This document shows positions 16,036-53,882 of a stretch of DNA of 64,000 nt, one piece after another. The stretch is from Pocillopora damicornis. Taxonomy: Eukaryota. The stretch spans positions 124,001 through 188,000 of the forward strand of contig NW_020846005.1 of assembly GCF_003704095.1 (NCBI RefSeq). The letters run 5' to 3'. How positions within the stretch are numbered: position 1 is the stretch's first letter; every line of letters starts with the position of its first letter. The notes under the pieces were generated by a model. That model did no database searches. It worked only from the letters and a program-made list of their open reading frames with translations, and had not been told where the DNA came from. The translations under genes were made by a program, and so were the position numbers.

Positions 16036-18626
16036 CTACTCCTCTTTCTTTTTTATTCTCCCAAGCCAGTGTTCCAACATAAAATTCACCAAAGTTTTTT
16101 CCTTTAAGAAAACAAACACTGCCACAGTCAACAAACAAACACCACCAATTCCAATGTGAAGAATGCGGTAATACCATCCATGTTCACAACATAGCTTTGC
16201 TTCTGATGTTGCAGTTATGCCCCAGGACAAGGCAAATGCAATCAACACTAGAGGTGATGGGAAAAGTCCTTGTAAAGGTTTGAGATGAGGGGCTGACTTG
16301 TAATAGTTGTAGATAAATATAAGACTGAAAAACAAAAGATAGAGAAAGAAGTGAGATGTTCTCAAGACTTGGTTAAAGGAGCTACATAGTTTTTTTTCTT
16401 TTTTTTCTGTAATCAGATTGGATGTGGGAGTGTAAGTCTATCATGTAAAGTGGTCATCTGGACATAGGTTGTCTACTGAATCATCACAGACTCTAGAAAT
16501 GACTTGTGCTGAGGTTTTCGAAATGTTTGTCACTTTTACCAACCACAGTTCTTTTCAGGAATACTATCACATGGACAATAACATTAAACAGTCAAAGGAG
16601 TGTTCTTGTGGGGTGTAAAGGACAGTTCAGCAGCTTCAGTGAATGATTAAATCAGAACTGCATAATTTACTTGATTCTGACAATGACTTTAGCTCAGGTT
16701 TCCAAAATTCAAATATCTCTACTTACAAAACACCTTTGAAGGGATACAATAAATCAGGGGAGCATAGTATAATCAACAACTTACTAACCTGTGATAAATG
16801 CGCAGGAGCATGTTAAGGCAGTTAGCTATGACAAATCCAACACTCCCAAAAATAGTGAGATACCAAGATGCTGCTAAGAACACTGCTGAGAATGCCATCA
16901 TTTTGTAATTGTAGGAGTCAACGTCATCTTTGCTCATGGTTGCAAACATGAAGCACTCTGTCATGCCATTGACAGCAATAATCAATACGTAAACACAATA
17001 CCATCGCAGCAGAGAGGGACCTAAAATGAACATAAAAATTAATTAGTAACTAGTAGATAGGGTAGCTAAGAAACTATCCTACTGCACTTTCCATGGCTGA
17101 TTCTCACATAAAATATTTCACTCAAAAAAGTACTGCTACTGCTATTAACCCTTTACATCCTAACATCAAAATGCATTTTCTGTATACTATTTTCTATACA
17201 TTCCTAAGGTGCTGATGAGGAGAATTTGAGTAACAATCAAGAGCTCTCTTAGTTGGTCATCATTTTCTTTATTCTTGTGACCTTAATGAGCGATTTGGGG
17301 ATGACATTGTCAGGAGAAATTACATGTAGATGCTAGTCTCTCTTAGAGGTCAAAGAGTTATGATTGGTAGCATGCACCCTGACCCAAATTTTGATTTCAG
17401 TAACATTTTCCATTTCCTTTCCTTGCTCCAGTTTCTATCCCTTCCAAAACCCCCCAATGCTGTTACATCAGCCAGGATATATTATGTGATACTTCAATGT
17501 CTAAATCACCTTCTCCAGTGCTCAGAGTTTTCCCTCCATAGATGTCAAGCAGAAGGAATGAGTAGCTGTAGCCAAATACCAAAAATGTCAATCCAACTAG
17601 AACAACAAACTTCAGAACAACTTCCAATGTATCCGAAGCCATTTTTGCTGACTGAGGTGTTTGCTTCTCAGCAGAGCTACCTCTTTCCAAAGTATATGCA
17701 AAGAAAGTGTAATAACTCTCTTCTATTGGCATAAAGACACATCTAGCAACCAGAGAACCAAGATTGTTAATCACATCATAAATTCCTTGTTGAGAAAATG
17801 TCAAAACCTTGAAAAGTGTCATAATATAGCGTTCACCTTCAGTCAAAATCTTTTTCAAGAAGGATTGCTTAAAAAAGCTCCATGTAAGATGTGCCAGTGC
17901 CCCACTTAAAAAACTCTTCCTTGATAGAGTTCTTGGGAAAAAGTCTCGCAAAGATCTAAGAGGAAAGTCGCTTTCTTCTTTATTTTGATATCTGGGGGCG
18001 GTTTTGATATAGTATATGAAATATACGTAGTATAAAACCATTACCAAAACTGAAAATGCCGTTTGTGCAATACAAAATGCAATGATCCCAAGATCTGGTA
18101 CAAAAACTACCAGTCCCAAAGTGATGACACATCGTGCAAAGTTTGCGATGCCTTCTATGACAACTTTAAGGCGCAAAAATACAAACGCTTGAGCAACGAC
18201 CCACAGTTGCTCTGACAAAAGTTCGATTGACCCACTGGCTGCAAAAACCAACACTGCTAACGGGTAGTTTGCAATTTTAACTGGATCAGGAATCTCTAGA
18301 TAGTACAACCACACATAACTGAGGATGACAGACAATACAACACCAAGAGGAAACACACACCAGAGAAGGTTAATGACCTGAGTCCATCTTTTATCCGCTG
18401 ACTTGCTGAGACACGCTTTTCGGAATGCCTCGCGAGCAACGAAGACGATAGTTTGATTGAGAAGCATCAGTCGCACGTTCACAACTCCGATCATATCTTT
18501 CGTGGTGTAGCGTAAGAGGATGCCATTCATTACAAAGGTGAGTATCCTAAATGTAACCTGCACAATGACATTGTATGAAGCAGAACGAACAGTGCTCCCA
18601 ACAAGGGTTTCTTTCTCGTCTGCCAT
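16036..18626 (-). CDS. RFT1: RFT1, ER multi-pass protein for Man5GlcNAc2-PP-dolichol translocation, 545 aa. Exons 18626-17510, 17020-16789, 16324-16036
   Basis: Conserved segments VNVRLMLLNQTIVFVAREAFRKACL, FFKQSFLKKILTEGERYIM, QGIYDVINNLGSLVARCVFMPIEESYYTFF, AVNGMTECF and GFVIANCLNMLLRIYHS. Canonical splice sites, 1638 nt in frame. C-terminal KKKEE resembles a dilysine ER-retrieval signal. Confidence 0.95.
17145..17361. mobile_element. TTAA MITE subfamily B
   Basis: TTAACCCTTTACATCCTAACATC...GGTCAAAGAGTTA. Homologous to the copies at 23493, 44806, 53636 and ~1181. Confidence 0.75.
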
Positions 18627-18987: not shown

Positions 18988-21900
18988 ATGGCGAAGAAAA
19001 ATTTTTGGTTCAACAGCTTTATATGGCTTGTGTTTGTAAGTATCCTTTATGGTTCTTCTTTGAAAAAGATTATGTTGGTTGCCATTTTTTTCTCTTAAAG
19101 TGCTAGTTACAGTAAATCGCTAATAGCTAATCATTTTCAATTATCTGTGAATCTAACCTTGCAACATTGTATTAATTTAACTGGATAGGTCGTGGGTCTC
19201 TCCAAGCAAGCCAAGAAGAAAATTGACAAAAGCTCCATCATAGAAATAAATGATATTAAGCCATTCAAGAAATTACAAAGGACCCATACCAATTTGCTTG
19301 TTTTATTTGCTCAAAGCGGTAGGTACTTTACAGAGGATTCTGTGCGATGCACTGCTTGTAGGAATGCACAGGAAATAAATCAGCTGGTGTTGATTTGTTG
19401 CTTTTTTTACTCTTGCTTAGGAAATAATGTGCTTGAAAATTTCACTATGGGAACTATATCCTACAATTACAAAATTTCGTCACTCAGTTACCACGATTCA
19501 GTGTGTACAGCTGATATTAATATTTTCTTTTGAAACGTTGCTATTATTTCTGTTTTCGAATGCAACTGCTTGGAAAGCGAGATGCATCAACCTGATACTC
19601 TTAACTAAATATTGATAAGACCTGATTGCGTGTGCTCTCGCTCCCATACTATTATGTGTTTACAATTCCTTTCCTTTTTCAATATTTGGTGCATTTTCAG
19701 CTCCGAATATTGTAACCCTGGAAACCAAAAAATCTCACAGAACAGGTTATTGAAAAATTATGCTTTGCGGTGACAAAAGATAAAATATTTTGTAGAACGT
19801 GATGCGTCAAGTCGATTTGAAGTCTTGGCACGAGTTGCAGAAGAAATTAAAGGCAGGGGGACTGTTGCATACATAAATTGTGGGTGAGTATTAATTGGTC
19901 AGCAGGAGGCTGTATTATTTAAATATTTTAATCAACATGAATTGATTTAAATTAGGAGGACTTTACTGTATTTTTTTTTGAGTTACTCTTCATTCTTGTT
20001 TTTTATTTGCATTCTTATAAAACCTTGGGGCTAAGGTTTGTTCTTAGAAATCTGTTCTCAATTTATTTTCACAGTTTCACCAGCTTTGATAGACTTCCCC
20101 TGATCATGGAGAGAATAAGATTAAATGAACAATGATAAAAAGTCCCATTACCCAGATGGCAATCAATCTCTTAACTCCCAAAAGTGATTAATATGTAATC
20201 TCTCCCAGTAATATCTGTATACTATCCAGCAACAGTGAATGAGAATACTCAAAATTTTCAGTTAGAAGCTGTTATCTTGATCTAATACCAAATTCACATA
20301 CCAGTAACTAATTACAAGGAAATGTCTAGCAGCTACAGGGGAGAATGAATGCTAAGATCTTGGGAGTTTTTAAGGGGTTGATTGAAATTGGTAGAGGATG
20401 TACTTAATTTTATATTTATTCTGCCCAAGATTATCGTCATGAGCTGCTCCTCTATACCTTGCCTATCTCCCTTTCATATTATTTCAGAATGAAAAGCAAT
20501 AGTTTTAAGAAGGATACCTTTAGACTGAGATAATTTTCTCTCCACAGGGGGAGCTAATCAATTATCATAATTGTATTTTTACAGAGAAAGCAAAGATACA
20601 AAAAAAATGTGCAAGAAGCTCAGAGTTTCTCCTCAACCTGTGGTGTTAAAACATTACAAGTGAGTTCAACCACCTTGTTGTTTCATTACTCATCCTGCTG
20701 CTTGCTTTGCACTCAAATTACATCTTTCCTTTACTTCCTGTTAGAATTTTGCAATTATCCACCCTTCCCTTTCACTGACTCCTGTCTCCTTTTATACTCT
20801 GCTTTCCTCCAAGGCTTGCCACTTTTTCCACTATTTTACAAACCATACCCCTCTTCTTTTCCACTTTATTTTATGTTACACTCCCCCCCCACTCTCTTCA
20901 TCTATTATTCACCCTACCTCCCTACTGACATCATCTTCCCACATACTCACCTCCTAAGCCTTTTTCTCGTGCTTCTTTGTTCATGTACTTACCCACCCCC
21001 CCTTCCCATGTCTTATTGACTAACTCCTTCTCCCCCTGAATCCAAAGCATCCTACTGATCTTCCACACCCTCAACTGGTGTTATATATAACTCAGTCCAT
21101 TTAGCCATAATAACTTTTTTAAATAATCCCATCCTCACTTTGTCGGGATGTCTTCGATAACTTTGCTTTTACATCAGGTACCCAATGATTATTCTAAGCT
21201 AAGGCACAATTTTGTGTTCACTTCTCCATCTGGAATTCATCCTATCCTCTCATCACCTTCTCACCCTGTCCAACTTTGTTACCTCAAATCCATACCACCC
21301 CAATCAGCCTATTTTAGTGGAGCTTGCAGAGCTTAGCCCCATAATTATACAAAATAGTAGTAACCCATCAAGCCGGAAATATTTGGATGTACGACCGTAT
21401 CACCATACGATCATACAAGATACTACTTTTAACATGTGTGGTCAAATGTACCGCAGGCATGCCAATGCTACGGCTTTGTTTAGTAGTCCAGTGGTCAGTG
21501 CACTGGGCTCTGAGTCAGAAGACCCAGGTTCTAGTCCTGGCTGGGGCAAGGCATTGTGCCCTTGAGACATGCAGGAAAAAAAATACGCGCTCCACTTTTA
21601 GGCTTGGCTAAATCTATATATTATATTACTTGGAACACATTCCTTCTGTTCTTCCTTTATCTTCATTTCTTCAATCCTTATGTTTCCAAACACTCTTGGT
21701 ATTGCATGGACAGGTGTACTATTTAATTTTTTTTAAATATTAATATAAGTTAAATGTTCCCCTTTTCACAGAGATGGGGATTTTAACAAAGATTATGATA
21801 GGAGGAACACAGTTAAGGTGAGTGAAATCATTGATTTTATCATGGTATTGTTTATGTTGTTTTTGTACTTTTAGTAGAAAAGTTAATAAGAAGCAACCCT

Positions 21901-24900
21901 CATTTTTAATCTTATATTTATCGCAACATTTACCCAATTTTTAAAATTTTCTGCAGTCAATGTTAAACTTTATGAATGATCCTACGGGAGAAATGCCTTG
22001 GGAAGAAGAAGAAGGCACAGAGGATGTACGACATGTTCACACAAGTAGTGTAAGTTGTGTAGTATAAAAAAACTTTTGAAAATCTTCAGAGTTACAGATA
22101 CTTGATGTTAAGTGATCAGGGCAGGAAAATTGATTTCCATGAAAAAATGTTTTTTTCTGTTTTTCAGGAATTTGTCAAACTGACAACAAAAGAGAAGAAA
22201 CCAATCATGGTCATGTTCTATGCTCCATGTGAGTCAAATTTTTGTAAATTTTTGCCAAAATCTGTAATGATCTGTGGTTGCTCACCCTTTCTGTTCCCTG
22301 CTGATCCCTGCTGACCCCTGTTTTTCCTTCCTAACCCCATCTCACACCTACTGACCCATGCTGGCCCCTGCTTACCCTTGTTTAACCCTGCTTGCTCTTG
22401 CTCAGCCCTGTNNNNNNNNNNNNNNNNNNNNNNNNNNNNNNNNNNNNNNNNNNNNNNNNNNNNNNNNNNNNNNNNNNNNNNNNNNCCTGCTCACCCCTGC
22501 TTACTCTTGCTTACCCTTGTTCATCCCTGCTCATTCCTGTGTGCCCTTCCTCAACGCTGCTTGCTCTTGCTGGTCCATGCTTGTTTGCGTTATTGTGACT
22601 TCATTGTATCTCATTATTTGAATTTTAGGGTGTGGTTATTGTAAAAAGTTAAAACCTGACTATGCTGTAGCAGCCACTGAACTTAAAGGAGAAGCTGTAA
22701 GTTTTTTTCAAACAAATTCATGACATATTGGGTGGTGAACATGTTAATGGGATTGGTTGTTGAAACATCAGTTACCACTGAGAAAACTCCTTCTCAGGAT
22801 GACTCTCACTTGGATGATCATGCCACACAATCAATCAATCACTGTCACCAACAATAACCTTTTTTAGGACTACACTTTTGTAGACATTCAGACTTCAAAG
22901 ATAGATAGATACATTCTTTATTGGATACAGAATTCTTAAATTTAATACATAGTTATAATGAAGCAGTGCATCAATAATTAAATTTATAAAAAATTAGAAT
23001 GGGACAAAGTAAAATATTGATATTAATTGTAAGTAGTTCAATATACAAAATATAACATTGACAGAAATTATGCTAATAAAGTTATTTAGGCCTAGACTTA
23101 AGAAATTTTCTCCTATTGAAAATTCACCAGTAGAAAATTACTTAAGTGACCTAAATCCTTTTATTGTAATACTGAGACTGTTGTGTAGTTAAGCAACCAT
23201 GTAGGAAAAAGACCTGTGGCCAGATTTTGAATTTATTTTGACCATGTGCAGATTACATGACCAGCTGTTACTCCTTGGTTCATGAAAGTTCCATGTCCAT
23301 GTAATTTGGTAGTCATACCAATTTTTTATTCCAACAGATAATGGCTGGAATGGATGTAGATACTTATGAAGCATATCAAATCAGAGAAAAATTCAATATC
23401 ACAGGATTTCCAACTTTAATATATTTTGAGTAAGGCCCAGTTATACATTTATTTCAAATTTTTTTGGAACTGACTTCTGTAGAGGTGTATTTTTAACCTT
23501 TTTACCCCTACGAGTGACTAGCATCTAATTTCTCTTCACAATGTCACACTTGAATCACTCATTAAAGGTCACAAGAATGAAGGGGATGATAACCAACTAA
23601 AGAAGCTCTAAAATTTTTATACAAATTCTCCCTGTCTGCAACTCAGGAAATTTAGAGAGAACAGTATAGAGAATATGGATTCTGATGTTGGGGTGTAAAG
23701 GGTTAATTGCTGGTTGAACTGAAGAGTTCAACTGAAGATGCAGCTTTCTGTAACTCTCTAAGTATGCCTTGAACTGTTTTTGAGTTAGTTGGGTCCTGCT
23801 GTCAGTATATGCATATTTATGGAAAATCTTATTATTTATTTGTGACCATTCTTATGAGTATTTCAAGAGGAATCAATAGTTGTCTATTTCTTTATGTATT
23901 TACACAGTATAATATTTTGATTAATCTGTCTGAATATTAACCTTAAAAAGATTTGGCAAAGATTTTAATTTCAGTTGTCACTGAATCAATGTCTGTCATA
24001 AACTTGATCTTCTTAGAAATGGTGAAGAAAAATATCGTTATCAAGGAAAACATGATAAAGATTCTCTTGTAGAGTGGATGAGAAAGTAAGTCTTATTTTG
24101 TATATCTGGAGTTACTAATGAATTAATGCAACCATTCCTGTCCTGGTTCTCTATTAGACAGTAGTGTAACAATTTTGGACTTGTGTCCAATGTATGACAC
24201 TAGTTTTGGATTTTAGATCTTGTGTTGGATTTTAGGCAGTAGTATCTGATTTTGGACACTGGCTAGACACTAGATGCTTGTGTCCAATTTTAGATGCTAG
24301 TGCCTGATTTTAACACTTGTGTCTAGTTTTAGACAATAGTGTCTGGGTTTAGACTCTAATGTCTGGTTTTAGCCACTAACTAGTGTCTGCTTTCTCGACA
24401 CCTTTGTCCAATTTTCATCACTTTGTCTGACTTAAGAGTCCATTTTAGATACTAGTGTCTGGATATTAGACAATTTTTCTTGGTACTGTGCTTATACAAT
24501 GGACTGTAAAAATATTTTGAGAAGAGTTTTTGAAGTTGTCTTTTAACTCTTTGACTTTATGTATGACAGACCAACACCAAATTTATTCTTACAATATCAA
24601 TACAATCTCAAGTATGAAAGTGATGAGAAAAAACACAAATGTCAATTAGGGGATTATTAGTTGATCCAATATCATATTATCCAAACTAAAATCATGAAAA
24701 ATGTCTGGCAGACAGTAAGGAGAATTACTAATTAGAACTTGGGAGTAAAATGGTTGAAAGGATCTACAATATCAATTGCTATATGACTCTCTTTACCATG
24801 TATGTAATCTTCAAGAGTAATTAAGATTTGTTAATTTTAAACTTGTGTATAATGTTGTTTTATTTTAGCCCTGCTCCTTCAACTCCACCTGCTAAGGAAG

Positions 24901-27900
24901 AGGAGTGGAGTGACATACCTAGTGATGTTGTCCATCTCAAAGATGACACATTTGATGACTTTATTGCAAACAATCCATCTGTTCTTGTCATGTTTTATGC
25001 TCCTTGTAAGTATCATTTTTTTTTTATTTCTACTTGCCTGGCCTTGTAGGAACTCGAAAGTCAAAATCTCTTACTTGTCTTTTTAGTGTTTCTTGCTATC
25101 ACTTTGTGATAAATTGATTTTTGTTAAAAAAAAGAAGCAATTCAGAGTGAATGGGTAACATACATAAATGTTATGTCAGGCCCACAAAGGTCTTCTCTAG
25201 GAAGACAAGATCATGGAACAACAGTTATGGACAGTTTCATGAGCAGCCTTTTATGTATTGATTCTTGGCCTTTCAGGGTGTGGTCACTGCAAAGCTATGA
25301 AGCCTGAATACACAGATGCAGCCAAAACAATGAAGGAGGAGGAGGTACTTTCAGTTTAAATATTTGACAGAGTGCAATAAATTTGATTTTGAGTGAGTAG
25401 TGTAAAACCAACTATTCTTACTGTATATCTTTAATGATAATTCTAAATTTCTTACTTGTGTGTTGAAGGCTGACTGGTAACAATGATTTCAGGTTCCTGG
25501 TGTGATAGCAGCAGTAGATGCAACAAAGGAAACAGCAGTTGGCAAAAGATTCAAAATTGAGGGCTATCCAACAGGTAACTGAGTTGATCAACAACCTCTT
25601 AGTGACTTTCTGAGCCAAGACTTTTTCACCCCTCTTGTTTGCAAGTGTTGATGCTGCCTTTGTGTTTCAGTGTGCACATGCTGTTTTGCCAAGATTAAAA
25701 AACCTGTTCTTATTGGAAAGTTTTGCAAATGGATCTGATACTGGCTTGGCCTGTGTCTTGCACTGGTGTTTTCCCATCTAGAGCTGGAGGTTTTGGAGAA
25801 ACAATGATCATTTGCAAAGGCTTTCTTTTACTTGAATTGGCTTCCACATATTTTTGCTTATGTAAAGTTAAAATGTGATATTCAAACTTTCAATCCACAG
25901 GTATGAGAGTTGACCTGTCCATCCACAAATAATGTTTTTCCTAGCAAATAGTTTCTTCCCAGGCCACCTCTTTGCTACTGTGGCAAAGGGATCCTGTTGA
26001 AATGGAAGTTTCAGTCGTGCTCCCCTGACATTGAATGCAACCATGATTTTTCTTTGGCTGAATGAAACTGTCAAGTGACCACCTGATTTCATTTCAAGGA
26101 CTTTGTGAACAAATGTATTAGTGCCTATGTAGACCTTGTGCTGGTTGGTTTGTGTTACTTGCTCATCACTTACCTGCTTTCTTTTTCTCATCTGTTTTCA
26201 GTGAAATATTTCAAGTAAGTGAAAGGTTTTACATTTGTGTTTGGGTTGAGACTTGTAGAGTTAACTGCCTTGTTTGGTTTGGGAAAAATTGACATAAAAT
26301 TTGTGAAATTTTTTTTATTATCAGAGATGGTGAATTTGCTTTTGATGTGAACGAGAGAACGGCTGACAAGATTGTGGCATTTATGAAAGAGTAAGTGCAT
26401 ATTGTGTGCTTAATCTTTGTATACAATGTAAATTGATACTGACAGAGTTTTTTTTTGTTTTATCCAGTCCAAAAGAACCACCCCCACCCCCTCCCCCAGA
26501 GAAAGATTGGAGTGACGTGGAGAGTGAGGTGGAACACCTGACAGATGACACTTTCAAAGGATTCCTGAAGAAAAAGAAACATGTCTTGGTCATGTTTTAT
26601 GCACCATGTAAGTTGAATATCAGAGAGAGTAACAACGATCTCTTTTCATGGGACCTTGATCCAGAGAGTTTAGTGCTGAGATGTAAGGAGAGTGGTGACA
26701 AAAGGGAGAAACCCGTCCAAAACAGGGAGCTAAATTAAATATGAGGTGGAAATAGAAATTTAAACATCTGACCCTTTGAATCATCACTTGGTTTCTGTAA
26801 CACTGAGCTACAGTCTGAGCTACATCTTATATTTGATATATGATGGCTATTTTTTTCTCTTAATTTTATTTTTTGCATTTTTTGATGTGTCAAAAAGGTT
26901 TCTTGTATCCATTTTAGGGTGTGGTCACTGCAAGAAAGCTAAACCAGAATTTATGGAAGCTGCTAAACATGATGCGGAAAACTCTAAGGTTAGACAACTT
27001 TATCAAGTGATTGTTTTGTAAATTTGAAGTCGTGTCTCATGTGCTAGTTAATCAACTGTCACAGAAATGTTTTTGACATTTTTGATGCTTTTCTTATAGA
27101 TAGGCTCATTCTTTCTCATGATAGACTCTTTGATGGTTGAAGAATAAGTTTTAACTTTGCAAAATTCTTAAGACGCTTAAGTCTCATTATTTAAACAAAA
27201 TTTAGCCGTTGTTTAACAAAACCGCGTCCTAAATAGTTCCCTACTTAGCCGAACGCTAACAATTGAAGGGCATTTATTTCATGAAATCAACATTCTTATA
27301 GATAAAAGCCTGAGGCCCACTGATTGCGTAAAAACCGTGGCTTGGGCTATACCTCGTGTAAATAAACCGGCCCTTAAGTTTTAGTCCAGTCAAGAGTTAT
27401 CTGAGATCAGATCCTCAATTACCGGTATCTCTGCTATTCAGAAATGATTTGACACTCGAGAGGGCAGCTGAAATGGACCTTTGAGGAGGATTGGAAAGTG
27501 TAGTAAACGAAGATAAATACCTTTAGTAATAAGTGTGTCTTAAAAGTTGCTTGAATCACCAAAACTTCTTGGCTCTTTTGTTAGGTTGCATACGCTGCAG
27601 TTGATTGTACAGTCCACAGATCTGTGTGTAACCAGTTTGACGTGCAGGGGTGTGTACTTCTTCGTTGTTCCCTGACTATGTATGAGAGCGAGGTGATAAA
27701 AGTTTTGAAATTCCAACGCTGAAATATCAGGAAACGAAACAGAATGCGCCCAGATTCGCACTTCTATTCCTTAGATATAGATAGGGCTTCAGTGGCTCGT
27801 ACCTTTATCAGGAATTTCGAGAAACGGGCCCCGGAAATGTATTGATAATTGTAAAAGTTAAGATAGGTTATCAAAAAACTGCGGCAAACGTATCCGCATG

Positions 27901-30900
27901 CGTCAACTTCTAGAAAAATGACGGACCGGAAGCTCAATTTTTTTACTCATGCGCAGTGCGTTTTACCGCGGTGTTGGTTATCAACTATTTTCCAGATACC
28001 CTACCTTCCGCTACTTCAACTACGGCAAGAAGGACTTCAAGTACATCGGAGGACGGGTGGCTAAGGACTTTATTCAGTTCATGGAGAATCCTCGTGAAGG
28101 TCCCCCACCCCCACCCTCTGAACCAGAGTGGAAAGATATGCCAAGTCACGTCACCCACCTAACTGACGATACTTTTGAGGAATTTGTGAAGACACACCAT
28201 TCGGTTCTTGTCATGTTCTATGCACCTTGTAAGTATGTTTGTGTCTTGCTCGATTTCTTGGACATGAAAATCATGTAACTGGGAACTTTTTTTCTTTAGA
28301 TTTTTTGCTTTACCTTAGTAAAGGCGATGTTTCAGCTTTATATTATGAATCAACCCATTGGCACAAACCTGTCCTAACTTATACTATTTGTGATGTAAGT
28401 CCTGTGACAGAAGGCGATTCAAGATTTTTTACTTTAGTTAAGAATTTTTTTTTTTCTTTGTTCAGTCGAGATTCTTCTTTGAGACTAGAATTGTTCTGTA
28501 ATTGAGAGTCAGACATTTTCGACCGTGAAAAAGAGTTGACTCGAATTGGACATCTTATGAAGCGGAATCACTGGGAGCCGCTCTTGATCACTCTGGCTCT
28601 CAATGTGTTCTTGTTGAATTAGTTTAATCGGCTTCTGGTTACGCACTGTCGAACCTCTAATGACGGCCATCTCTCCAAAACAACTCCGTAACACCCGTGT
28701 TACTTCACCAGATAGCTTTTTCTCAGGACGGCCGATGGCTAAACAGGTAGGCTAGGTTAAGGTAGGCCAGGCTATTGAAGTTTCTATCCTCTCGTTCGAT
28801 AATTTCAGGGTGTGGTCACTGCAAAGCAATGAAGCCTGCTTACATGGAAGCCGCTGAAGAGTTGCACAGTAAAAATGTGAGTCGCAAAATTACAGAGAAA
28901 GCTAAATGATGAGTCATTGTGGCTCATCAACACTTCTCTTGGTTGTTCAACGTTTCTTAATACAACTAGGAATATTGCAGAGAGAGAACCTGCTTTGCAT
29001 CATCGGTGGGTTAGAGAAACGGCAAATTGTAGCTGACTGTCAGCGTGAAAATCAAGGAGATGTTAACAATTTTCAATGAGAATAAGACTCCCAAGAGATA
29101 TCGGAACACAGCCAATAGCACTTTTGCGATTGGAAGCTCTCCCAAAAGACCTTCAAGAACTTGTATACGAACAGGGTTAGACATTCTGGATTTATATATC
29201 ACAACGCTGATATATAGACAAGTATTTCATTTATCTTTGGATGCAATGTCCAGCCTCCTTCGCCCTCCCTACAATGTCACAAGCNNNNNNNNNNNNNNNN
29301 NNNNNNNNNNNNNNNNNNNNNNNNNNNNNNNNNNNNNNNNNNNNNNNNNNNNNNNNNNNNNNNNNNNNNNNNNNNNNNNNNNNNNNNNNNNNNNNNNNNN
29401 NNNNNNNNNNNNNNNNNNNNNNNNNNNNNNNNNNNNNNNNNNNNNNNNNNNNNNNNNNNNNNNNNNNNNNNNNNNNNNNNNNNNNNNNNNNNNNNNNNNN
29501 NNNNNNNNNNNNNNNNNNNNNNNNNNNNNTTTGTCGTTCTTCTGGTAATCTTAACAGGCTCGCAGTGTTTTGGCCGCTGTAGATTGTACCAAAGAGAAAT
29601 CGTTGGCACAAAAGTATGACATTGATGGATTTCCTACAAGTGAGTTCAAACAAATATCAATTTATTTAAAAAAAAANNNNNNNNNNNNNNNNNNNNNNNN
29701 NNNNNNNNNNNNNNNNNNNNNNNNNNNNNNNNNNNNNNNNNNNNNNNNNNNNNNNNNNNNNNNNNNNNNNNNNNNNGGGGGGGGGGAAATAACGCGATGC
29801 GTGACAAGCTCTCCTCCCAGGGATGAAACATGTTGCGTTATCGGATCAAACAACGACTAGCCTGAAATCTAGATAATTGTATACTAGATGAAAATATTTT
29901 TTGTACTATATCATGCAATGGGTAATATTTTCTCTACAGGACCACTCAAGCTTTCTTTTATTTTTCGTGTTGTAGGTCCGAGGCCTCAGCACCTGCAGAC
30001 GCCAAAACAGCCAAACCTGAAAAACCAGTTGAACCAGCTTGGAGTGATGAAGATACAGACGTGGTCCATTTAACAGCAAGCACATTTCAGGAGTTTATTA
30101 AGTCACACAGTTCAGCCCTTGTCATGTTTTATGCTCCCTGTAAGTTCTAAGAAAAAGCACTTTTTGTTGTCTATTTGTTACGTTTGCGATATGTCCTTTC
30201 TTTTTTATGTCGCAATTGTTAAATCTGTCTCGTTCGCTTTAATTTATTGGTTTTTAATACCTTATTATGTGGTTTTGGCTGTTCTGTCTTTCATTTGATG
30301 TTATTGTAAGATTTCTTTTCTGATTTTGTTGTTTTCTACTTATTTAGGGTGTCCACATTGCAAAAAGATAAAACCCGAGTTTTCGGAGGTGGCCAAAGAA
30401 GTCAACACCGAGAACAAGGTAATCAAATATTCTTTCATATCAACGAGAGTTGCGCAACTTCCTCAGAACCTAGCTCCAATGAAACGAATGAAGACTTCTT
30501 CTACTTGTGTTTCCGAAAAAAGTTTTTGCTTTACTCGGTCCCTCTTGTCAGTTGGAAACAAACACAAATTTTGCAGTAACTTTCCATGCTTTAAATCAGA
30601 ATCACATTTTTATCTTTGAAAGCAAAGCCAGATTTTGGGAAAAATCAAGAACAAAAAGAAATACGCTTGACCTCTTTATCTCTATAATTGAGTGAATCTT
30701 GGCTGTTTTTGTTTTTGTTTTTGTTTTTTTTTTATTTATTTATTTATTTTTGGGGGGGGGGGGGTGTTTCGACGCAAATTCTCATTTTCCACGATTTTGC
30801 TTTTCAGGTCCCTGGTGCCCTGGGTGCGGTGGATTGTACTGTGGATGGTGATCTTTGTACTGAACAGGAAGTCAAGCGTTATCCCACATGTGAGTCTTTT

Positions 30901-33515
30901 ACTTCCCGTCATATTCTAGTAACACGTGTCTTTGAAACGTTGCCAGATGTTATCTCCTTTTCACACGCACTCACCAACTCACGTATATACGTTCACAGGC
31001 CTAATACTTTTTTTTAGAACGACCTTCACCCAGACAATGACGCTTGACGATACAGTAACTTTGAATCGCATACGGTGGTTGAAAAGTTATCTTAATTGCT
31101 CGGTGTATGAAGTGTAACACCCAAACTGTTTTCTCGAGCAAAGAAAAAGACGATTTTCCCCTTGAATATCTATTGCAGTTTTGAAAGTTAATTATAACAA
31201 ATACTGATTTTTTGTTTTTCTTATCTCTCTCTGGAACTATGTTGGAACAGTAAAGTACTACAAGTAAGTGTATCTATTTCACAAACAACATCTTCCATGC
31301 CTAACTATGTCATGTCATGTAAAATTCAACATGCACTGATTTCAATATTCTATTTGTTGCTTGAACTGATGATATAAAACCTTACCTGTCTTCCATTTTC
31401 TAGTTTTGTTTTCTCTTTTGAACGAGGATGTTTTAAGATGCAATTCAAACGATTAAGGAAGGACATAAATCATCGCTGCCGGCGTGAACCCGCGAGGTTT
31501 AAATCTTGTGCTACAGAAATTGTCAACGTCGTTCCCAGTTCCCTTTCTTCATACCCTCAGGGATCGAGGTCAAGAAATTATCAGAATGTTCTACCTCATA
31601 ACACAGTAACGTTAAGAAGTGTAACTGCCTAGAATAGCAAGTGATGATGTCATAATTCTTACAGAGATGGGGAATTTGCTTACAAGTACACAAAGAAAAG
31701 GAAAGCAGAGGACATGCTAGCCTTCATGAAAGAGTACGGTATTATTTCCATCTTGTCGCCAAAAATTATATTAAAATGATTTGTGCTTTGCATGTCATTG
31801 GCCAACCTACTTTTTCATAAATTATCAAAGTGTAGTGTTAAGGAAATCATGAACCTTGGATACATACGAATGTGAAATTTTTACTGACTAATTTTGCTTG
31901 GAGAATAATTATATCTGTTCAAAAATTGTTTTAAATTTGCTCATCTCTTTCTCAGTCCCCAGAAACCTGCACCTCCTCCTCCACCACCTGATTGGAGTAA
32001 GGAGTCTGGTAAAGTGCATTTCCTGACTAACGAGACTTGGGATTCATTCATGGCCGAACATCCTTCTGTGCTGGTCATGTTTTTTGCTCCTTGTATGTAC
32101 AAACAATTAATTTCTTATCATTTCAATTATTATTTAACCTTTTTTTCTGTTGATACAGCGGTAGATTATTAAAGTTTTAACCCAACGTGAACGGCTAGTC
32201 GTTTTGATATCACATGTACGAGTCACGTATAATTCACTTATCACGTGCCATTCACGTGTCAATCTAAGGTAAGGGAACGACTCTGTTAATTGGTTCACTG
32301 AAAATTATGTTAGGTTCAATGGAGGTTCATTGGTTCGAGAGGAATCACATGACTCACCAATTGTATCAGATTTTTACACTCGAAGGTTAGAGGTTCGATG
32401 CTTGGTGGAAAACTAGGATTTTTCCTCATCTCATTCTCGTGACGGAACAAATGACATTTTTTTCCTTAATTTAATCGTAATGTGGTCAGTTCGTTTTTCA
32501 TGATACAGCAAAAGAAAGGGGAACTAAATGAGATGCTGTTGATACGTTAGTCTCTATGTAGCAATTATTTACCGTTGTGGAGGACAACCACCATTTTACC
32601 CACACTGAGGTTAATAATTGTATTAGTAAATACCACACACACACACACAAAAAAAAGGTTTATTTCTTTCAATATACCGAATCATGGTCAGAAATTAAAC
32701 TCTAGACACGCGATTTTGTCCCATAGGCTGCTCGGAGGTGAATAAAACTTACTATTCACTTCCGAACCAGCCAATCAGCGCGCGCGATAAGCATTACTAA
32801 CCTGTGTGGTTTATACTAACAACACTAATTTATTTGTTCATTTATTTACTTTTTTTAATCCATTTTTTGACGTGTGTTTTTAGGGTGTGGTTACTGTAAA
32901 GCTATGAAGCCAAACTTCTTTAAAGCCGCTGAGATCCTTAGTGAACAACATGTAAGTCTCTCTAAACTTGTTCTGGGAATGTTTCACAAAAATTCTTTGT
33001 TCTTTGCAGGTGTATCATCTTGCCTTGCCTTAATGTTTTCACCTCCGTTTTGCTTTTCGTGAGTTATCGATTATTATCTTATCGATTTGGTTTCCGCTGA
33101 AGTATATATGCACAGTATACTGATGTACTATCTAACTTTATTTAGCCGTCTGAAGCGTTAGCAGCTGTTGACTGCACGAAATTCAAATCTATTTGCAAGC
33201 GGACCGGTCTCAAGGGATATCCCACAGGTAAAACTCGTCTCTTCTTTCGGTACGTCTAGTTTGACCATGTTTCACGTTAAAATACTGCTAAAAACGAACG
33301 GTATGGTATAATTTTTTGACGAAAGCTGTCATGCTTTGACAAAACTCCGACGACTTTTAAATCGGACAAATCGTCGAAATGGGCGTTTTGCATGTCATGG
33401 CTTTTAAACCTCTATGAGCAGAACAGCGAATCGATTCAATGACTTTAAGTGGACTTCTTAGTTGCTTTTCCATTGTATAAACTCTTTAGCTGTAAATATA
33501 ATTTTTGTCTGACGA

Positions 33516-33552
<37 letters not shown>

Positions 33553-35842
33553 GCGCTTGTTCGACTTGTAACGTTTAATGGGCCATAACTCTTATTTGGT
33601 ATAATGTTTCTTCTCTTTTCTTCAATGTCCTTGACTGACCTGCAAAAGTGAAATACTACAAGTAAGTAATAATGATTTGTCATCTTCACCTTTCTACTTC
33701 TTCATTTCAAACGGTTTGTTAATGTTCCTAAATATGTCGTCAGCTTCTCGATATGTTTATTTTTCCACATCCTAGTTTTGATGGAAATTGTAAATGCTAA
33801 GGCCAGAAGCGTGTGACAATAACTGGCAAAAATAAAAAGGCCTCGCGTCTTTTGCACATATTCAACGCAAATGGAATCTTTATCTTAACAAAAAATCCGG
33901 AAAAATTATCGAGGCGATAGCGATGTTCTGTTATGTAAGAACTGATTTTCTTCAGTCATTCACCATGTTAAAACGTTGTAGAAAAAAACACCTTTTCAGA
34001 AGGTGGATGACTGATAAGGGTGGAATAGAGAAATTTATATCGAAGTACTGCCATTTTTCATATTCTTGTCGGAAACAATTTGTTGCGCTGAACACATGCA
34101 ACTTTATGTTTTCTCGTCACAAAAGAGATTTGAAAGTTTTATTAATTTAGGTGCCAGTAGCTTATTTTCATGGCTTCTTGTCAAGCAATTAAGCGTCGCA
34201 TTAAACAGTATCCTCTTTTTGGTAAATTTCTTCTTTTTTTTTTCTTATTTAACGTCTGTACGTGGATACTTAGAGAGAAATTGATGCTTGTATCTTGTCG
34301 TAGTAAATAAAACTAAAAAAATGTTAGCTATAAGTTCGTTTCAAGAGATTATATTTTCTTGGTCTGTTTATAGTATATGACTTTCTTTCATTGTTTATCA
34401 TAGAAATGGCGAAATGGAAAAAGATTATGATGGTGATAGGTCGGCTGAAGATATAATTAACTTTATGAAGAGGTAACTTCAATCATTCGTTACGCGACCA
34501 TTGTCGCGCATGTGCAAGAAACGGAGTGTGCGCGTACGCTCCTAGCGACGCCGCCATTGTTTTCTTGGGGTCTCTCTGTTATATGTGCCATGACAGGTTA
34601 TTAACTTTGAATAGTAATTTCTTATGATTGTCCAAGCTTTCCATCAAAGCATAGCTTTGTCATCATATCAACGCAAGACACTGAATTTGAGTACCACAAG
34701 AGTTCTTTGAGAAACTTCTTGTTCATGATTTAACAGCAAATTAACGCGTTTTGTGTTAGTAGGAGAAACTGGAATATGTCCAGTTTCCCCTCTGGTGCAT
34801 CATCTAATCCTTCTGTTCTCTTCAGCATGAGTGGTGTGGACACTGTACCTGAAGAAACGAAAGGAACTGAGACAGAAAAAGAAGAATCAGATGGATTGAA
34901 GATCTTAGCTTCTGCAAACTTTGAATCCTTCTTGTCCGAGACAGAACACGTGTTGGTTATGTTCTTTGCCCCATGTAAGTCCCACGAAAAGTAAACTACT
35001 ACCTCACAATCTTTATCAACTCTTGGTTTGAGTCACAGAAATTCTCTTCAATTTTGCAGATGTTCAGGATCAATTTCTGTTGACCTAACAGTCTATTGTG
35101 AATCTTCTTATTCCTTTAGGGTGTGGTCATTGTCAGAATGCCAAACCCAAATTCCTGAAAGCTTCTGAAGCGTTTGCCGAGGAAGCTAATAAAGCTTTCA
35201 CTGCAGTTGACTGCACTCAGGATAGCGGTACGTTTAACAAAAGTATTTCTTGTCTCTGAAAGAGTGAGGTTCAAAATGAAAAAATAATCATTGAGCTCGT
35301 TAAGTCTTAATTCCTCCATTCGTATTCCTTCTTAATCACTGCACACCAATCAAAAGACATGAATGCTTGTGAACGCGTTACAAGGGCAATTAGAATCATG
35401 GGAAGAACATAGGCTGCCTTTGGAATAGCCTATTCCAAGCGTTCATGTGCACGATAGCAAAGAAGTGAACAAGCGAGGGAGGTCTGGGTCGGGTATTATA
35501 TGATCCAGACCTCCCTAGTTTTTCACTCCTTTGCCACTATCGTGTCGTTTACTATCTTTGGATGGATTAAATTAGGTTTGCAGCCTAAAAAGAAAAGACT
35601 GGTAACGAGTTACTGGAAACTGTCACAACTTACTTTTGACATTTCCCTTAACAGATTTGTGTGATAAACAAGGCGTGAACGGATATCCGACCATCAAGTA
35701 TTACAGATATGGTGCTTTTGTTGTTGAATACGACGGCGACAGAACTGAAGAAGACTTTTTGTCCTTCATGAAGTCACCCCCCAACCCCCTCCCCCCTGAT
35801 CAACCAGACAGCAACCAAGATGAAAAGCGAGACGAACTTTAA
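18988..35842 (+). CDS. PDIA5: PDIA5/PDIR-like protein disulfide isomerase: signal peptide, one non-catalytic Trx-like domain, seven catalytic Trx domains, C-terminal RDEL. About 37 exons, some hidden in gap 29677-29776
   Basis: N-terminal domain resembles PDIA5 (NLLVLF..VAEEIKGRGTVAYINCG.SKDTKKMCKKLRV..HYKDGDFNKDYDR). Active-site exons start at 22629 (CGYC), 25277 (CGHC), 26918 (CGHC), 28809 (CGHC), 30348 (CPHC), 32884 (CGYC) and 35120 (CGHC), each preceded by a VMF(Y/F)AP exon. Last exon 35655-35842 ends EKRDEL-TAA. Confidence 0.92.
20171..20381. mobile_element. TTAA MITE subfamily A, degraded copy
   Basis: Same internal sequence as 2326-2537 (gtgattaa..tgagaatactcaaa..tacaaggaaatgtctagcagctacaggggagaat). 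Confidence 0.7.
21315..21628 (+). mobile_element. ~300-bp non-autonomous element (Helentron/HINE-like) with internal tRNA/SINE-like head, copy 1
   Basis: Aligns end to end with 60627-60921. Subterminal IR AGTGGAGC...GCTCCACT, 3' hairpin TTTAG-GCTTGG-CTAAA, B-box-like GGTTCTAGTCC. Confidence 0.65.
22277..22582. repeat. Degenerate ~10-bp pyrimidine-rich tandem repeat (TGCTCACCCC-like) spanning an N gap
   Basis: tgctcaccct / tgctgacccc / tgcttaccct units on both sides of the gap 22412-22485. Confidence 0.7.
23493..23706. mobile_element. TTAA MITE subfamily B, reverse orientation
   Basis: Ends GATGTTGGGGTGTAAAGGGTTAA, the reverse complement of the subfamily B start. Confidence 0.75.
24168..24475. 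repeat. Degenerate ~20-bp minisatellite, consensus about TTTTAGACACTAGTGTCTGG, ~14-15 units
   Basis: Recurrent ttttagaca..agtgtct units. The consensus core AGACACTAGTGTCT is a palindrome. Confidence 0.75.
24543..24757. mobile_element. TTAA MITE, related degraded copy
   Basis: ttaactctttgac...aaggagaattactaattagaacttgggagtaaaatggttgaa, similar to the subfamily A end. Confidence 0.55.
26202..26214 (+). other. 13-nt coding micro-exon of PDIA5-like, domain 2 (V-K-Y-F-K)
   Basis: ttttcag|TGAAATATTTCAA|gtaagt. Needed to join the phase-1 end of the GYPT exon to the phase-2 start of the DGEFAF exon. Confidence 0.85.
29677..29776. other. 100-N assembly gap hiding PDIA5-like exons
   Basis: Flanking exons are phase-incompatible, and the KYxK and xGE..FM segments of domain 4 are absent. 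Confidence 0.85.
31251..31263 (+). other. 13-nt coding micro-exon of PDIA5-like, domain 5 (L-K-Y-Y-K)
   Basis: aacag|TAAAGTACTACAA|gtaagt. Restores frame between RYPT and DGEFAY. Confidence 0.85.
32623..32819. mobile_element. Small inverted-repeat-bounded element
   Basis: TTAGTAAATACCACAC ... GTGTGGTTTATACTAA imperfect inverted repeats. Confidence 0.45.
33516..33550. repeat. Poly-G tract
   Basis: Over 30 consecutive G, ~100 nt upstream of the micro-exon at 33649. Confidence 0.9.
33649..33661 (+). other. 13-nt coding micro-exon of PDIA5-like, domain 6 (V-K-Y-Y-K)
   Basis: caaaag|TGAAATACTACAA|gtaagt. Restores frame between GYPT and NGEMEK. Confidence 0.83.
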
Positions 35843-37421: not shown

Positions 37422-40400
37422 TTACAAGATGGTGCATGCGCTGCTCTCATTTCTTCTCTCTGCAGGAGCTCGACCCGTTGTTGCAGGAGCGGAGGCATGA
37501 GGGGCAGTCGTCTGAGTGTTTGAATTCATTTCTCCAATAATGGCCCGCAGTTCGGATATCTGGAAACAAATTATTGAATTAGAGGATGATCATCTGTCAC
37601 GCACGTTGGGCTACGAAATGATTGTCTCGAGAGGAAGCAGTCCCTGGCCAGCTCCGATTTCGCGGTCAAATTCTCCACTAACTCCTGAGCTTCAAGGACA
37701 TTGGTACGTCAGACCATATGCCAGGTTCACATTTGAAAAGCGTCCTGTATACTGTTAGGATTAGCAATATCGACAGCGTCCAGGATCGAACTTTAGCCTT
37801 CTTGGAAACTGACAATTATGATGGACTGTTACACTTTAAGGGGTGGGGAGGGGGGTAATTGTCATTGACCAACAGCACGGTGGTACATTTTTCAAATTTA
37901 AGGGTGCACATGGCGTTTTTTTAGAGATGGGCAAGGGTTTTCCATGTTTTTCTTCAAAAATTGTCCAATCACTCGGACACAAAAGCTCACCCCTACAGGG
38001 AATAAATAAAGCCATGTGAGAGTGAACTGTAACACACTACTTTTAAATGTTTTCATCGTCAACATAGACAGTGCACATACCGGTACATCACTTTTGCCTT
38101 CGGACTGTTTCTTGTCACAGAGCTGGCGAAGATGATTCTGAAAGACAACAGAACTGAAGTTATAATTGTTCAGGGAGCATTATCGCAGTTCGTCTAAAAG
38201 ATCAACACGTTCCCGTAAGCAGATAACGCGGGTTAACAACCTGCGTGAGGAAATGAGTGCAATACTCTACACTAAAAATAATACTACCATCGACTTTGAA
38301 ATTTGAGGAACTTTTCCTGGTTTACAAGAATTTCCTTAGAATCTCTCCCGTGCTAACTAAGACGGTTTTTGTGAAGTACTGTTATTTTTTTTGTGTGGAT
38401 AACATACATTGTTTTGGATAGGGAAACAATTTAACATGGGGAATTTACTTGAACAGGGTTGGTTTCTAGAAGTGTCCTAAAGATTTTTGTTAAGGGCTGT
38501 TGCCAAAGATTAGTCTGCGATTGCAGGTATTGTTATTGCACCAACGACTGGAAACCTATCAAATTCACCAGTTGGAAGAGAAAACGGAAAGCTCTCTCTC
38601 CGAGAAAAAAATTTAGGCAATCGCTCGGGATGGTGTTACTTTACGATACACTGAAAAATAAGTCATCAACCTACCATTTTGTCTTGGAGTCGTTTGTTCT
38701 GCTTCTTTAATGTTGCATTGTCTGCCATTCCTTTTACTACAGCAGGAGTGAGAGACACCTACAGAACAGTGTTTCACAGAATGAATCAATTTTGCAGTCA
38801 ACATACTTCACAGGAAATAATTCCTGTTTAAGTCTGTTGTGAAATCAGCCTGAAAAACTTAAGGTAGTATTGAGTTCGTGCTCACGTTTTTCTTTAGTGT
38901 TTCTGCTCTCATAATTGCTTTGGTATCTTTTCCTTTCTTGGCAGTTTTGTTGACCGGTTTCTTGTCGACCACTTGCTTTCCCCAGAGCTGTATAATGACC
39001 TCCTTGTTTTTCAGAAACTGGATTAACTGAAAAGGAATAACGAGAAGTGATGTGACTATTTTAATCTCACTTTCCCTACTAAAGAAATCAATGTGACCAA
39101 TAAAAAGGGCTTGAGTGGTACAGTAAGAATAACAGGTAAGGAGTTACACTGCGCGCGCTACGAGCGCTGCGAGCTCCGCTACTACTTTCTCAGATTTCCG
39201 TCATCGGAAAATTATGCTTACATGAATATCAGACTGTCATTCTACTCCGAATATAGTGCACCATTTTGGCTAACCAGTCCCAGGAGTTTCGAAATGACAG
39301 CAATCTTCTGCAACCGCATTACATCATGGCATCCCTTACCCAAGTAATTTTAACTTCTCCGTCTATGGTAAGGATGACACCTTTGTGTGTGAGCATGTAG
39401 ACGAAAGCTACTTTCTGTATTTCTTGTGGTACAGTTTATTATGCTGTACAAGGTGGCTCTAACTTTAAAGTCAGTTCATGAAACCCTAAAATGAACGGTA
39501 CAGAGAAGCACTTTCAAATGGTACATTGTACCTATAAAACTGTTTGGTTCTCGAGTTTCAAAAGTGGAATTGAAAGAGGAAGCATTCAGTTTGAAGCTCC
39601 TAAAACTTTGAGTTACCTTCGGTGGAACTCTCTCAAAACTGAAAGTTCTTTCGTAGTTAAATTCGGGATTCCTTGTTCCAGATTTTACTTCCGTCTTAAG
39701 ATCCGCTTCAAGGTACATGGAATATTTACAGTACACGTCCTGTTTTGAGAAAAAGAGACCAGTCTTGATATCGTTAAAAGGCAGCAGTCATGTATAAAAA
39801 GTGGTGAAATACAAAAACACCGAAGTGTTATTAATCGTCTCACGATGAAGTAACTTCTGATGTGGTTCACGATGTTTCGACTACATTCTACTTGCATTCT
39901 TCAACCGGTGAGGTCCAGTAGTTATGGGTCACATTTTAAGGAATTTTCCCTTTTTCCCCGCGAAGTTTTTAAACTTTTAATTACCAGTTCCCATTAAATC
40001 TCTCTGATGTCACCCTTTGTCTAATCTAAGCAGTAAAAACGGAAATCAATACTTAGATCTTACCGTGTAGCGCTTTGGAATTCCCTTTGCACTCTGCACT
40101 CGCACCACAAACACAAGCTTTTTACCTTCCTGTAGAAGAGAAACACGTACTGTCACATTTCAAATTTCCTCAGCTGTTCACCCCAGGAGCTTAACGTCAA
40201 ATCTTTTGAGAATCCTCTTTTCTTGCATGAGTTATCAATTCCTTACAACGGCCGTTTTTATGCTCTCGAGACGACTTTAACGTCTTAGACAACTTTAACG
40301 CTATCGATGACTGAAGATCGGTGGGTGAGAAAAACAGACAAGACTAAGTAATGCACCACGGCGGAAGAAAGATGGTTAAGAGTTAAGAATTTAGAATGAT

Positions 40401-43400
40401 TTACCAGTTGACTAGGATCGTCAATAAAGATGTCATCTTCTTCTGTGATTTCTTTTCCATTTTCGTTTAAAGGAACGACTTCTACCTACGGGAAAAGACA
40501 CAGATATGCCAAGTTCAAAGTTGCTGAAGAGGCCATAGACGCCATGTTGAAGGCAAAAGGATCGGGTTGGAATGAAAAAGAAAGCGGGACAGTACTTACA
40601 TTAAGATAGCCCAGTTCTTTTCCTTTATAATCAGTGATACTCAGCTGTTCTCTCATATCAAGCTGAAAGGGAAACAAGAAGAAATCAAGACATGTTTGCC
40701 TTAAAACGAAAAATCAGACGTTTGGAAAACATGAGAAGCTTCTGAAAACGAATTGAGGCAATGTTTAATAATGATTTAAGTAACTTGAGTGACAAGTGCA
40801 CGGCATTCAGTAATCTAAAAGACGGTATAAAAATCTTCTCGGTCCGGCCATGTCCTCGTCTATCGTCAATCGGTCACTTTATCAACTTTGATGCGATTCA
40901 ATCAAGTTGTAACGAAATTAAATGGAAGGGTGAAAATAAGAAGCAAGGCAGGAGACTCCGAGGTTTTTTTTTTTATTTAGGCTTTACGGCTACAGAAAAA
41001 TAAAAACGTCTTATAGGAAAAAAGCAACCGAACAAACGACACTCATCTAGCTATTATTGAACTAAAATTTTCGAGACAATAATAAGCTAAAAGGAACCAG
41101 GATAATTAAAAATAAGGGAAAATAACACAGATCATTACAGCAAACAATTATGGCATGCTTACCACATATCCCAGACTCTGCATAGGAACAGCCACACAGC
41201 CAATCAGACTCTCGACATCCGGGCTTTCAGTAAAAGGATCTTTCTCGTCTTCGAGTTGCCAATCATCGCCGTCTTCGAAATTTTCGTACATTTCGTCCAT
41301 GACGTATTTCCTGTTGATAAACTTGGCTTTTGGCCAGAGGTATTCGACGCCAGTTTGTAAGTCCCGCATGACTACGTATGGCTAGCACGCAAAAAAAAGA
41401 TAAAACATCATGCATTGCGAATTCCTTGTTGCATAATGTTAGAATTCAAGATGAGTTTATCGTGTGAAGCGGACAACATAAACGGTGTCACGCTGTTATA
41501 CACAAATTGACAAAATAACACAAAGAGAATGTACCTCGGGTCTTCCTTCGGGGAGTCCGCGAGCCTTGGCAGAGACAACGGAGACTTCAAACGAAACCTG
41601 GAAAATAAGGGAAAGAGATCAGACTCATGACGATTTCTTAGAGGCTCCTTTGGACAAATGTAGCCACACAGTATTACATGCATTGTAAGATACAAAATGG
41701 AGATTCTTTTTTAGTACCTTCTTATCCAACTCTTGACTGATGGCATTTGCTTCATTTACCATCGGCATCAGATCTGCCAGATCTTCTCGTAACAACATTG
41801 CTTCTGAATATATGAAGGCAACAGGGAGTGAATTTCTAAAGCTGGAAATGTTTCCTTCGATTTACGATGAACAGCCAACTAATTGGCTGATGAACGACTG
41901 ACTGACTGACTAACAGCCGACCGACTAACTGACTGACCGAGTAACTTACAAACCAGCTGACCACCCAACCGACTGACTGGTTGACTGACCGACTCACTGA
42001 CTGATCAACTGACATTACATTTCACTGTCAAATGGACTGACTGATTCATCCACCGAAATCAACAGCTACTCAACTCAACATCTTCTTCACCTTTTGACTC
42101 CTGATCATCCACGTCAAGTCCGGCGTTCTTGGCGATTTCCTCCTGCGCCATTTCATATGTTATGTCCGCCTGCTTCAAAGAAGACGACTGCGCCTCAGCA
42201 GGATGATGAAAGACATAAAGGTGACTTGTGCCAAACATAACTCTACAGACACACCCAAAAAAACACATGTAAGACGCAGGGAAATTAAAGTCAGAGTCAG
42301 GTTCCGTTGTCAAATTATTCCATGCCCGTCTCACACCTAATAGCTCCGGCATCACCTGCGTGTAAGGGCGTGCGAGATTGAGCTCTCTCGGGTGCTCTTA
42401 ATACTGGAAGGATTGTGACTATTTTGAACTATCGTCTTCATTATCTAGCACTGAACACTCCACTACATTTTATGAACAGTTCCCACCGGTGCACACCTAC
42501 CCTTCCCCTAACCTAAAATTAACAATGACTTGTTATCAGTTGTTAGGGGAGTTAGGTTGGTTAGAGGTTTATGGGAAGGGTGGGTGCGCAGTTGCTCAGA
42601 TACTGACATTGATCCTTGCTGCTCGTATTACGATCGTAAATTCTGCAAACATATCCCATCATTCTAGCGGGTGGTTACCTGTCCAGATGGTGAAGTTCTT
42701 CTTCTTCGTCATCATCAACCGGTTCTCCATTGACGAGGACTTTAGCTTCGCCAAAGGTTTTGATGGTGATCTTTTTAGAACCTTCATTTTTAATTTCACA
42801 GTGTTGCTTCAGGATGCTAAACAAATGGAAACAACCAAGACGGATATGGAAATAGGTAAAAATTAGGTAATTACATGATGAAAAATATTTATCGTAATTC
42901 GATGTCAATTACGAGTAGTCCTCCAGAAAAAGAAGGTACAAAAGATGTTGAAGATTTCTCCTCCCTGGGGATTTGAACCCCGCCCTACTGCAGTTTCTAG
43001 AACGAATCTCATGCTAATAAAACCGGAGTATTGAGAACTCGTGGAGGAGGAAAATGGACGGCTCGGTTGTCGAGTAAAGAAAGCTGATATCCGACAATGT
43101 TCAAAAGACAACTTACTTTAATCCATGAAGAACAATGTCTGCTGGCGGATCACCCTTTTTGTTGCCGACTTTTACGACTCCTAGCATTTGAAAAGTAAAA
43201 CAAATTGAGATCACAAAAAGCAGAAAAGTGCCATAACCTTTATTCAAGATGATATAGCATACCTGATTTAACCATGTGCACAATCATTCCCGTCAGCTGG
43301 GGATCTGGGTTCAAGTTCCACAGATGAGGAGTTGACTGACGTTCTTTCTTTTCAGCTTCTTTATCCTGATGGAAAACAGGTGAAACGCACAGGAAACACG

Positions 43401-53848: not shown

Positions 53849-53882
53849 TTCATATCTCTTTCTGTTTTGATAATTGTCTGCC

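Follow-up and report, generated by a model that had tools for sequence, protein, structure and literature searches.

A seven-site PDIA5/PDIR orthologue encoded by one spliced gene in the coral Pocillopora damicornis

We analysed a window of 64,000 nt from Pocillopora damicornis (GCF_003704095.1, NW_020846005.1, 124,001-188,000, forward strand), and all coordinates below are positions in this window. It holds a PDIA5/PDIR gene (Table 1), for which a coordinate-built exon model gave 34 visible exons, 21 before a gap of N and 13 after it, and all 33 junctions have a GT donor and an AG acceptor. RFT1, whose first exon (Pfam Rft-1, E 2.5e-21) occupies 18390-18626 on the minus strand, lies head to head with this gene at a distance of about 360 bases; both genes act in ER glycoprotein biogenesis, and a shared promoter is possible. 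Further along the window are open reading frame pieces which we take, from resemblance, to belong to a kinesin-3-type motor (about 39400-47050, minus strand), an inositol polyphosphate 1-phosphatase (53880-55700, minus strand) and a gamma-tubulin (57100-61450, plus strand).

Table 1. Layout of the PDIA5/PDIR gene in window positions
Feature	Position	Strand	Details and basis
PDIA5/PDIR gene	18988..35842	+	34 visible exons + 82 coding bases within N gap; 1,029 aa
Exon 1, most of likely signal peptide	18988..19035	+	Sequence; predicted helix 2-23
Non-catalytic b domain, PDIA5 type, exons 2-6; final exon extends into a1	19189..22049	+	PDB 4i6x match; Cys pair and basic residues checked
Catalytic domain a1, CGYC 22631-22642	22168..24085	+	Exon model, domain tree, intron map
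Catalytic domain a2, CGHC 25279-25290; 13-nt micro-exon 26202-26214	24869..26390	+	Exon model, RNA contigs
Catalytic domain a3, CGHC 26920-26931; end approximate, within exon 27996-28228	26468..28100	+	Exon model, tree
Catalytic domain a4 (a2-like), CGHC 28811-28822; start approximate; final 28 aa inside gap	28130..29639	+	Exon model, P. verrucosa protein, profiles
Assembly gap with 82 coding bases	29677..29776	.	RNA joint 29639-29976; 13-nt micro-exon + 69-nt exon inferred from a5/a6 pattern
Catalytic domain a5 (a2-like), CPHC 30350-30361; micro-exon 31251-31263	29976..31733	+	Exon model, RNA contigs, profiles
Catalytic domain a6 (a2-like), CGYC 32886-32897; micro-exon 33649-33661	31956..34472	+	Exon model, RNA contigs, profiles
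Catalytic domain a7 (a3-like), CGHC 35122-35133; RDEL 35828-35839 then stop	34826..35842	+	Exon model, tree, profiles

The two halves of the gene flanking the gap encode 598 aa with four CxxC motifs and 403 aa with three CxxC motifs and an RDEL end, with no internal stops. Once the 82 bases of the gap are added the product is 1,029 aa (exactly 1,029 codons), in keeping with the roughly 1,000 aa proposed in an earlier note on this DNA. The seven intact CxxC sites of that note were all found in the order it gave (CGYC, CGHC, CGHC, CGHC, CPHC, CGYC, CGHC), as were the three proline-rich linkers it quoted, and the single terminal RDEL it described is the only [KHR][DE]EL-stop in six frames of the 64-kb window, at 35828. 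In all seven motifs the codon for the active-site W is interrupted by a phase-1 intron. By-eye inspection and a predicted helix at residues 2-23 point to a likely signal peptide at the N-terminus. After the N-terminal b domain every domain is of the catalytic type (7/7), none lacking CxxC, and a Pfam Thioredoxin count, which the earlier note had proposed as a check, gave seven stretches in the Pocillopora verrucosa orthologue (P0004), each with CxxC. The 13-nt micro-exons recur in a2, a5 and a6, and their letters were seen in RNA contigs; the P. damicornis database models fall short by 10 and 26 aa, perhaps because such micro-exons were missed. When the P. damicornis genome was searched with one PDIA5 exon, all six matches lay within the same gene, which weakly argues against a second genomic copy. 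We also considered alternative last exons in the coral gene and rejected them for the sequence outside the gap, where no further in-frame retention motif was found and the four visible domain-end introns run into a stop within 15 codons.

The exons flanking the gap do not share a phase, and their direct join leads to a stop at aa 631, so the gap must either conceal coding sequence or separate two genes. A boundary between two genes, or a misjoin, at 29677 was what the earlier note had named as fatal to its reading. Contigs from 6 of 22 listed sequencing runs, derived from other individuals or close species, were compared with the window. In all three RNA-type runs, from three studies (X11, X15 and X5, the last only guessed to be an RNA run), single contigs splice 29639 to 29976 with 82 bases between, and in run X20 unspliced sequence enters the gap from both sides. 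Among the matches listed, the RNA contigs also show many other predicted junctions and the letters of the micro-exons; a contig spanning the whole gene was not among the matches listed for the runs examined, and this, together with the phase of the flanking exons, is what an artefact would have in its favour. Ten Logan proteins of 1,028-1,029 aa, with seven sites each, are encoded on single contigs of 3.5-5.9 kb, as compared with a gene span of 16.9 kb. The closest protein, P. verrucosa P0004 (1,029 aa, 99% identical overall), is identical at 594/598 and 398/403 positions of the two halves and places 28 aa between them, and neither a second signal peptide nor a second retention motif was found in the gene model. 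Given the gap-spanning RNA contigs, the exact fit of 82 bases to the frame and the full-length Logan proteins, the PDIA5 region is one gene across the gap. Two genes or a misjoin are ruled out by the RNA contigs and the P. verrucosa protein, and we give practically no weight to a seven-domain protein produced by such an artefact.

The assignment to PDIA5/PDIR made in the earlier note was borne out by the N-terminal domain. PDB 4i6x, the b domain of human PDIA5, matches residues 35-157 of the coral protein, and for the b-domain protein P0094 it was the sole PDB match (E 2.3e-21). According to the accessible part of Vinaik 2013 (PMC3629029), the PDIR b domain contains a structural disulfide as well as a calreticulin-binding surface formed by six basic residues. 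Using the 4i6x alignment and the construct described in that part of the paper to map human residues onto the coral protein, we found the equivalents of human C85-C94 kept as C88 and C98 in the window model, and those of K37, K40, R44, K92, K95 and K96 kept in all six cases as K40, K43, R47, K96, K99 and K100. Domains a1-a3 are orthologous, position by position, to their counterparts in other PDIA5 proteins: every a1 domain falls in a single clade (100/95), which includes stickleback, sponge and choanoflagellate, and the a3 domains group together (81/97), while a2 was not resolved as a clade in the tree, yet has its best identity with position-matched domains.

Human PDIA5 has a b-a-a-a arrangement (CSMC, CGHC, CPHC) with a KEEL end, and its catalytic domains number three in the text of PMC3500226 available to us. 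The coral protein shares with it a PDIR-type b domain at the N-terminus, including the structural disulfide and the basic surface, the catalytic domains that alone follow, and an ER retention motif, but has seven catalytic domains instead of three and CGYC instead of CSMC at the first site. Moreover, the coral CPHC lies in the a2-like a5, whereas the coral a3 has CGHC, and the CPHC common to both proteins is therefore likely convergent. PDIA4/ERp72 also has several CGHC domains and good per-domain similarity to the coral protein (3idv), and RefSeq labels the Pocillopora, Acropora and Montipora proteins "probable PDI A4". However, the coral protein lacks the internal non-catalytic b-b' pair of PDIA4, its N-terminal domain matches PDIA5 alone, and it has Met in place of Glu before the active site; the RefSeq naming is a misannotation contradicted by the architecture. 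ERp46/TXNDC5, the top PDB sequence match, likewise carries tandem catalytic domains on linkers, but has three of them and no PDIR b domain. The domains of ERp46 act independently, and it is the closest model for independent domain action.

Catalytic domains were then counted in related proteins with a purpose-built profile; because the searches lean towards proteins similar to the query, the counts describe a sample rather than a full survey. Of the 12 named anthozoan species for which a complete model was available, taken as one with b domain and retention motif, 10 have seven domains with all CxxC intact, namely two Pocillopora, Oculina, Porites, three Acropora, two Montipora and the octocoral Dendronephthya, for which a six-domain isoform is also modelled. 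The exceptions are Acropora cervicornis, with six, and a low-quality A. digitifera model, with four; incomplete records of Exaiptasia (6), Paramuricea (6) and Nematostella (3) and a Desmophyllum fragment were left out. Elsewhere the count was 8-11 in amphioxus (with up to 10 CGHC sites), 5 each in a hemichordate, two sea cucumbers and two annelids, 5-7 in molluscs (7 in the gastropod Gigantopelta), 4 in most insects and a spider, 3 in some insects, and 4 in both the sponge Oscarella and the choanoflagellate Salpingoeca. An amoebozoan transcript has 3, with contamination possible. Defined by exactly three catalytic domains, as in the human description, the family would not admit the coral protein, and its orthologues run from 3 to 11. 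To judge from these sequences, anthozoans normally have seven, and the invertebrates retrieved have, as a rule, more than three.

Extra PDIA5 domains in invertebrates are an already published phenomenon. PDIR orthologues in which a PDIR b domain is followed by extra catalytic domains towards the C-terminus have been reported from mosquito, with four, and from Hydra, with eight, the latter a cnidarian like the coral with its seven; the accessible part of that paper gives the expansion two sentences and a figure panel, without history or function (Vinaik 2013, PMC3629029). The "lineage-specific" protein of the earlier note thus did not survive: seven domains occur in an octocoral as well as in stony corals, other invertebrates have 3-11, and the mosquito and Hydra expansions are in print. 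A seven-domain PDIA5 as the invertebrate norm, which the note had held would overturn it, proved correct for anthozoans, while invertebrates elsewhere mostly exceed three within that range. A literature search, covering mostly titles and listings and few subscription papers, turned up no work that treats the seven-domain form of anthozoans or how its domains arose. The part of a Conus paper that could be consulted (PMC4747531) has only partial PDIA5-like pieces and no domain count. For an Acropora "PDIA5" in an FST peak, the authors align the product to TXNDC12 in the portion consulted (PMC6505131), and it is probably another gene.

Several of the retrieved models differ in organization. In Branchiostoma (P0001, P0002, P0003, P0208) there are younger internal copies, a5, a8, a9 and a10 being 62-77% identical, and isoform models differ by whole modules. 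Three proteins of one JGI/IMG cluster (P0351, P0017, P0361) have 4-, 6- and 8-domain forms with shared domains 99-100% identical, but different C-termini with the retention motifs REDL, REDL and KDEL; their a1 and a3 group with those of the jellyfish Sanderia. This looks like alternative last exons setting the number of active sites, although assembly artefacts could also produce it. Sanderia P0018 is extended at its N-terminus by a long segment with a homeobox match, likely a fused gene model, and in Trichoplax P0241 most sites are degenerate and a long acidic stretch is inserted.

Within the coral protein the domains are 25-52% identical to one another, whereas domains at the same position are 71-87% identical between Pocillopora and Porites and 47-76% identical to those of the octocoral. 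As same-position identity across species is higher than identity within the protein, the expansion is old. A tree was built from 108 domains of 20 proteins (LG+G4, 112 columns), in which the bootstrap had not settled and 48 of 105 inner branches stayed open; vertebrates entered it with no complete sequence, the stickleback record having two readable domains. Besides the a1 clade, the tree contains a group (98/97) made up of all a3 domains and the terminal ones from anthozoans, medusozoans, amphioxus, a hemichordate, an echinoderm, an annelid and two molluscs, and the coral a7 falls in this group. The domains a2, a4 and a6 were poorly resolved, and the choanoflagellate a4 was oddly placed. In this per-domain phylogeny, of a kind suggested by the earlier note, a stony-coral-only origin of a4-a7, a hypothesis that comes from the same note, was rejected as a constrained grouping (AU p=0.0026, in a test run after the tree was seen). 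Constraining the cnidarian and bilaterian terminal a3-like domains together, a group named only after the tree was seen, gave a p-AU of 0.416, which is compatible with a clade yet no proof of one.

Profiles from 20 non-cnidarian proteins scored a4 at 158 bits as a2 and 135 as a3, a5 at 130 and 123, and a6 at 135 and 122, the margins for a5 and a6 being small; the coral a7 scored 136 bits as a3 and 108 as a2. Domains a2, a5 and a6 have five intron positions in common, including the 13-nt micro-exon, and the hidden 82 bases of a4 equal 13+69. Judged from sequence, domains 4-6 appear to be copied from domain 2, and domain 7 from domain 3. The history may have begun with an old b-a1-a2-a3 core, followed by an early duplication of the a2-a3 pair and then by further a2-type modules, with seven domains reached, we infer, before the hexacoral/octocoral split. 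The comparisons allow such an early pair duplication with a later loss in vertebrates. More tentatively, and at somewhat less than even odds, the three-site vertebrate PDIA5 would be derived, the cnidarian-bilaterian ancestor would have had at least five domains (a1-a2-a3-a2'-a3'), and animals would tune the number of sites by module duplication and, in the medusozoan-like lineage, by alternative last exons giving 4-, 6- and 8-site isoforms with their own retention motifs.

Human PDIA5 has a role in ATF6 activation. For the coral gene we favour, at a probability of roughly 0.8, a PDIA5/PDIR orthologue with a b domain and seven CxxC domains that is likely an ER-resident thiol-disulfide oxidoreductase docked on calreticulin. 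The basic surface of its b domain would bind the P-domain of calreticulin, as shown for the human domain, and this docking would place a string of seven catalytic domains, loosely tethered, near glycoprotein clients. In the AlphaFold model (mean pLDDT 85.6) eight thioredoxin folds are predicted with confidence and the linkers with low confidence; the pTM of 0.33 leaves their mutual arrangement unpredicted and is not proof of chain flexibility. All seven domains have the cis-Pro motif G[YF]PT. Each may act largely alone, and the extra domains would raise local catalyst concentration and avidity without new chemistry. Met stands at the position of the PDIA4 charge-pair Glu, and Glu was found in 0 of 818 pattern-matched family domains, a count that includes members of near-identical clusters. 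All seven domains lack the charge-pair glutamate, which would slow each site. The charge pair of PDI is described as important for proton transfer in a passage of PMC3991636.

Instead of adding to one another, the domains could be specialized, with the differing potentials of CGYC, CGHC and CPHC, which the earlier note proposed and which the motifs alone suggest, dividing oxidation, isomerization and reduction for large Cys-rich clients, for example minicollagens, mucins or proteins of the skeletal matrix. The much closer match of orthologous domains between Pocillopora and Porites than of domains within one protein suits this view, and so does the CPHC at a5, fixed in all hexacorals seen; the human PDIR sites, too, are unequal in activity and client preference in the accessible parts of PMC3500226 and PMC3629029. 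The seven intact sites and the long-kept CPHC hint at domain-specific roles over pure redundancy. However, CGHC occupies a5 in both the octocoral and the medusozoan-like proteins, and the motifs in domains 6 and 7 differ between coral genera. In domain 1, CGYC or CGFC is a common motif among the invertebrate orthologues. The equal or larger numbers in amphioxus and Gigantopelta, neither of which has cnidocysts or a coral skeleton, argue against a cnidarian-specific driver, and no tie to stinging cells or skeleton was found in the counts, motifs and domain tree compared here. We consider such a division of labour unlikely. A near-neutral drift, in which phase-compatible modules are easily gained and lost and seven has no functional meaning, appears less likely still. 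It would account for the spread of counts across taxa, for the younger copies in amphioxus and for the same-phase introns that bound each module, but ten anthozoan species keep seven intact sites with best matches colinear by position (weakly so for a6), which implies purifying selection on every domain.

The coral PDIA5 is a largely ordinary protein with the usual anthozoan domain count. Its structure corrects the PDIA4 database naming and closes the assembly gap in the gene model, and it places the textbook three-site PDIR at the low end of its family. If the five-domain ancestor and the isoforms of alternative valency are true, these proteins would form a natural series in which to ask what added sites give a PDI. 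Finally, a short repeated element in several introns of the coral gene (about 20200-20350, 23490-23710 and 24610-24750) is covered to great depth, with numerous loose contig ends, by RNA and DNA runs alike, and is likely a small interspersed repeat.
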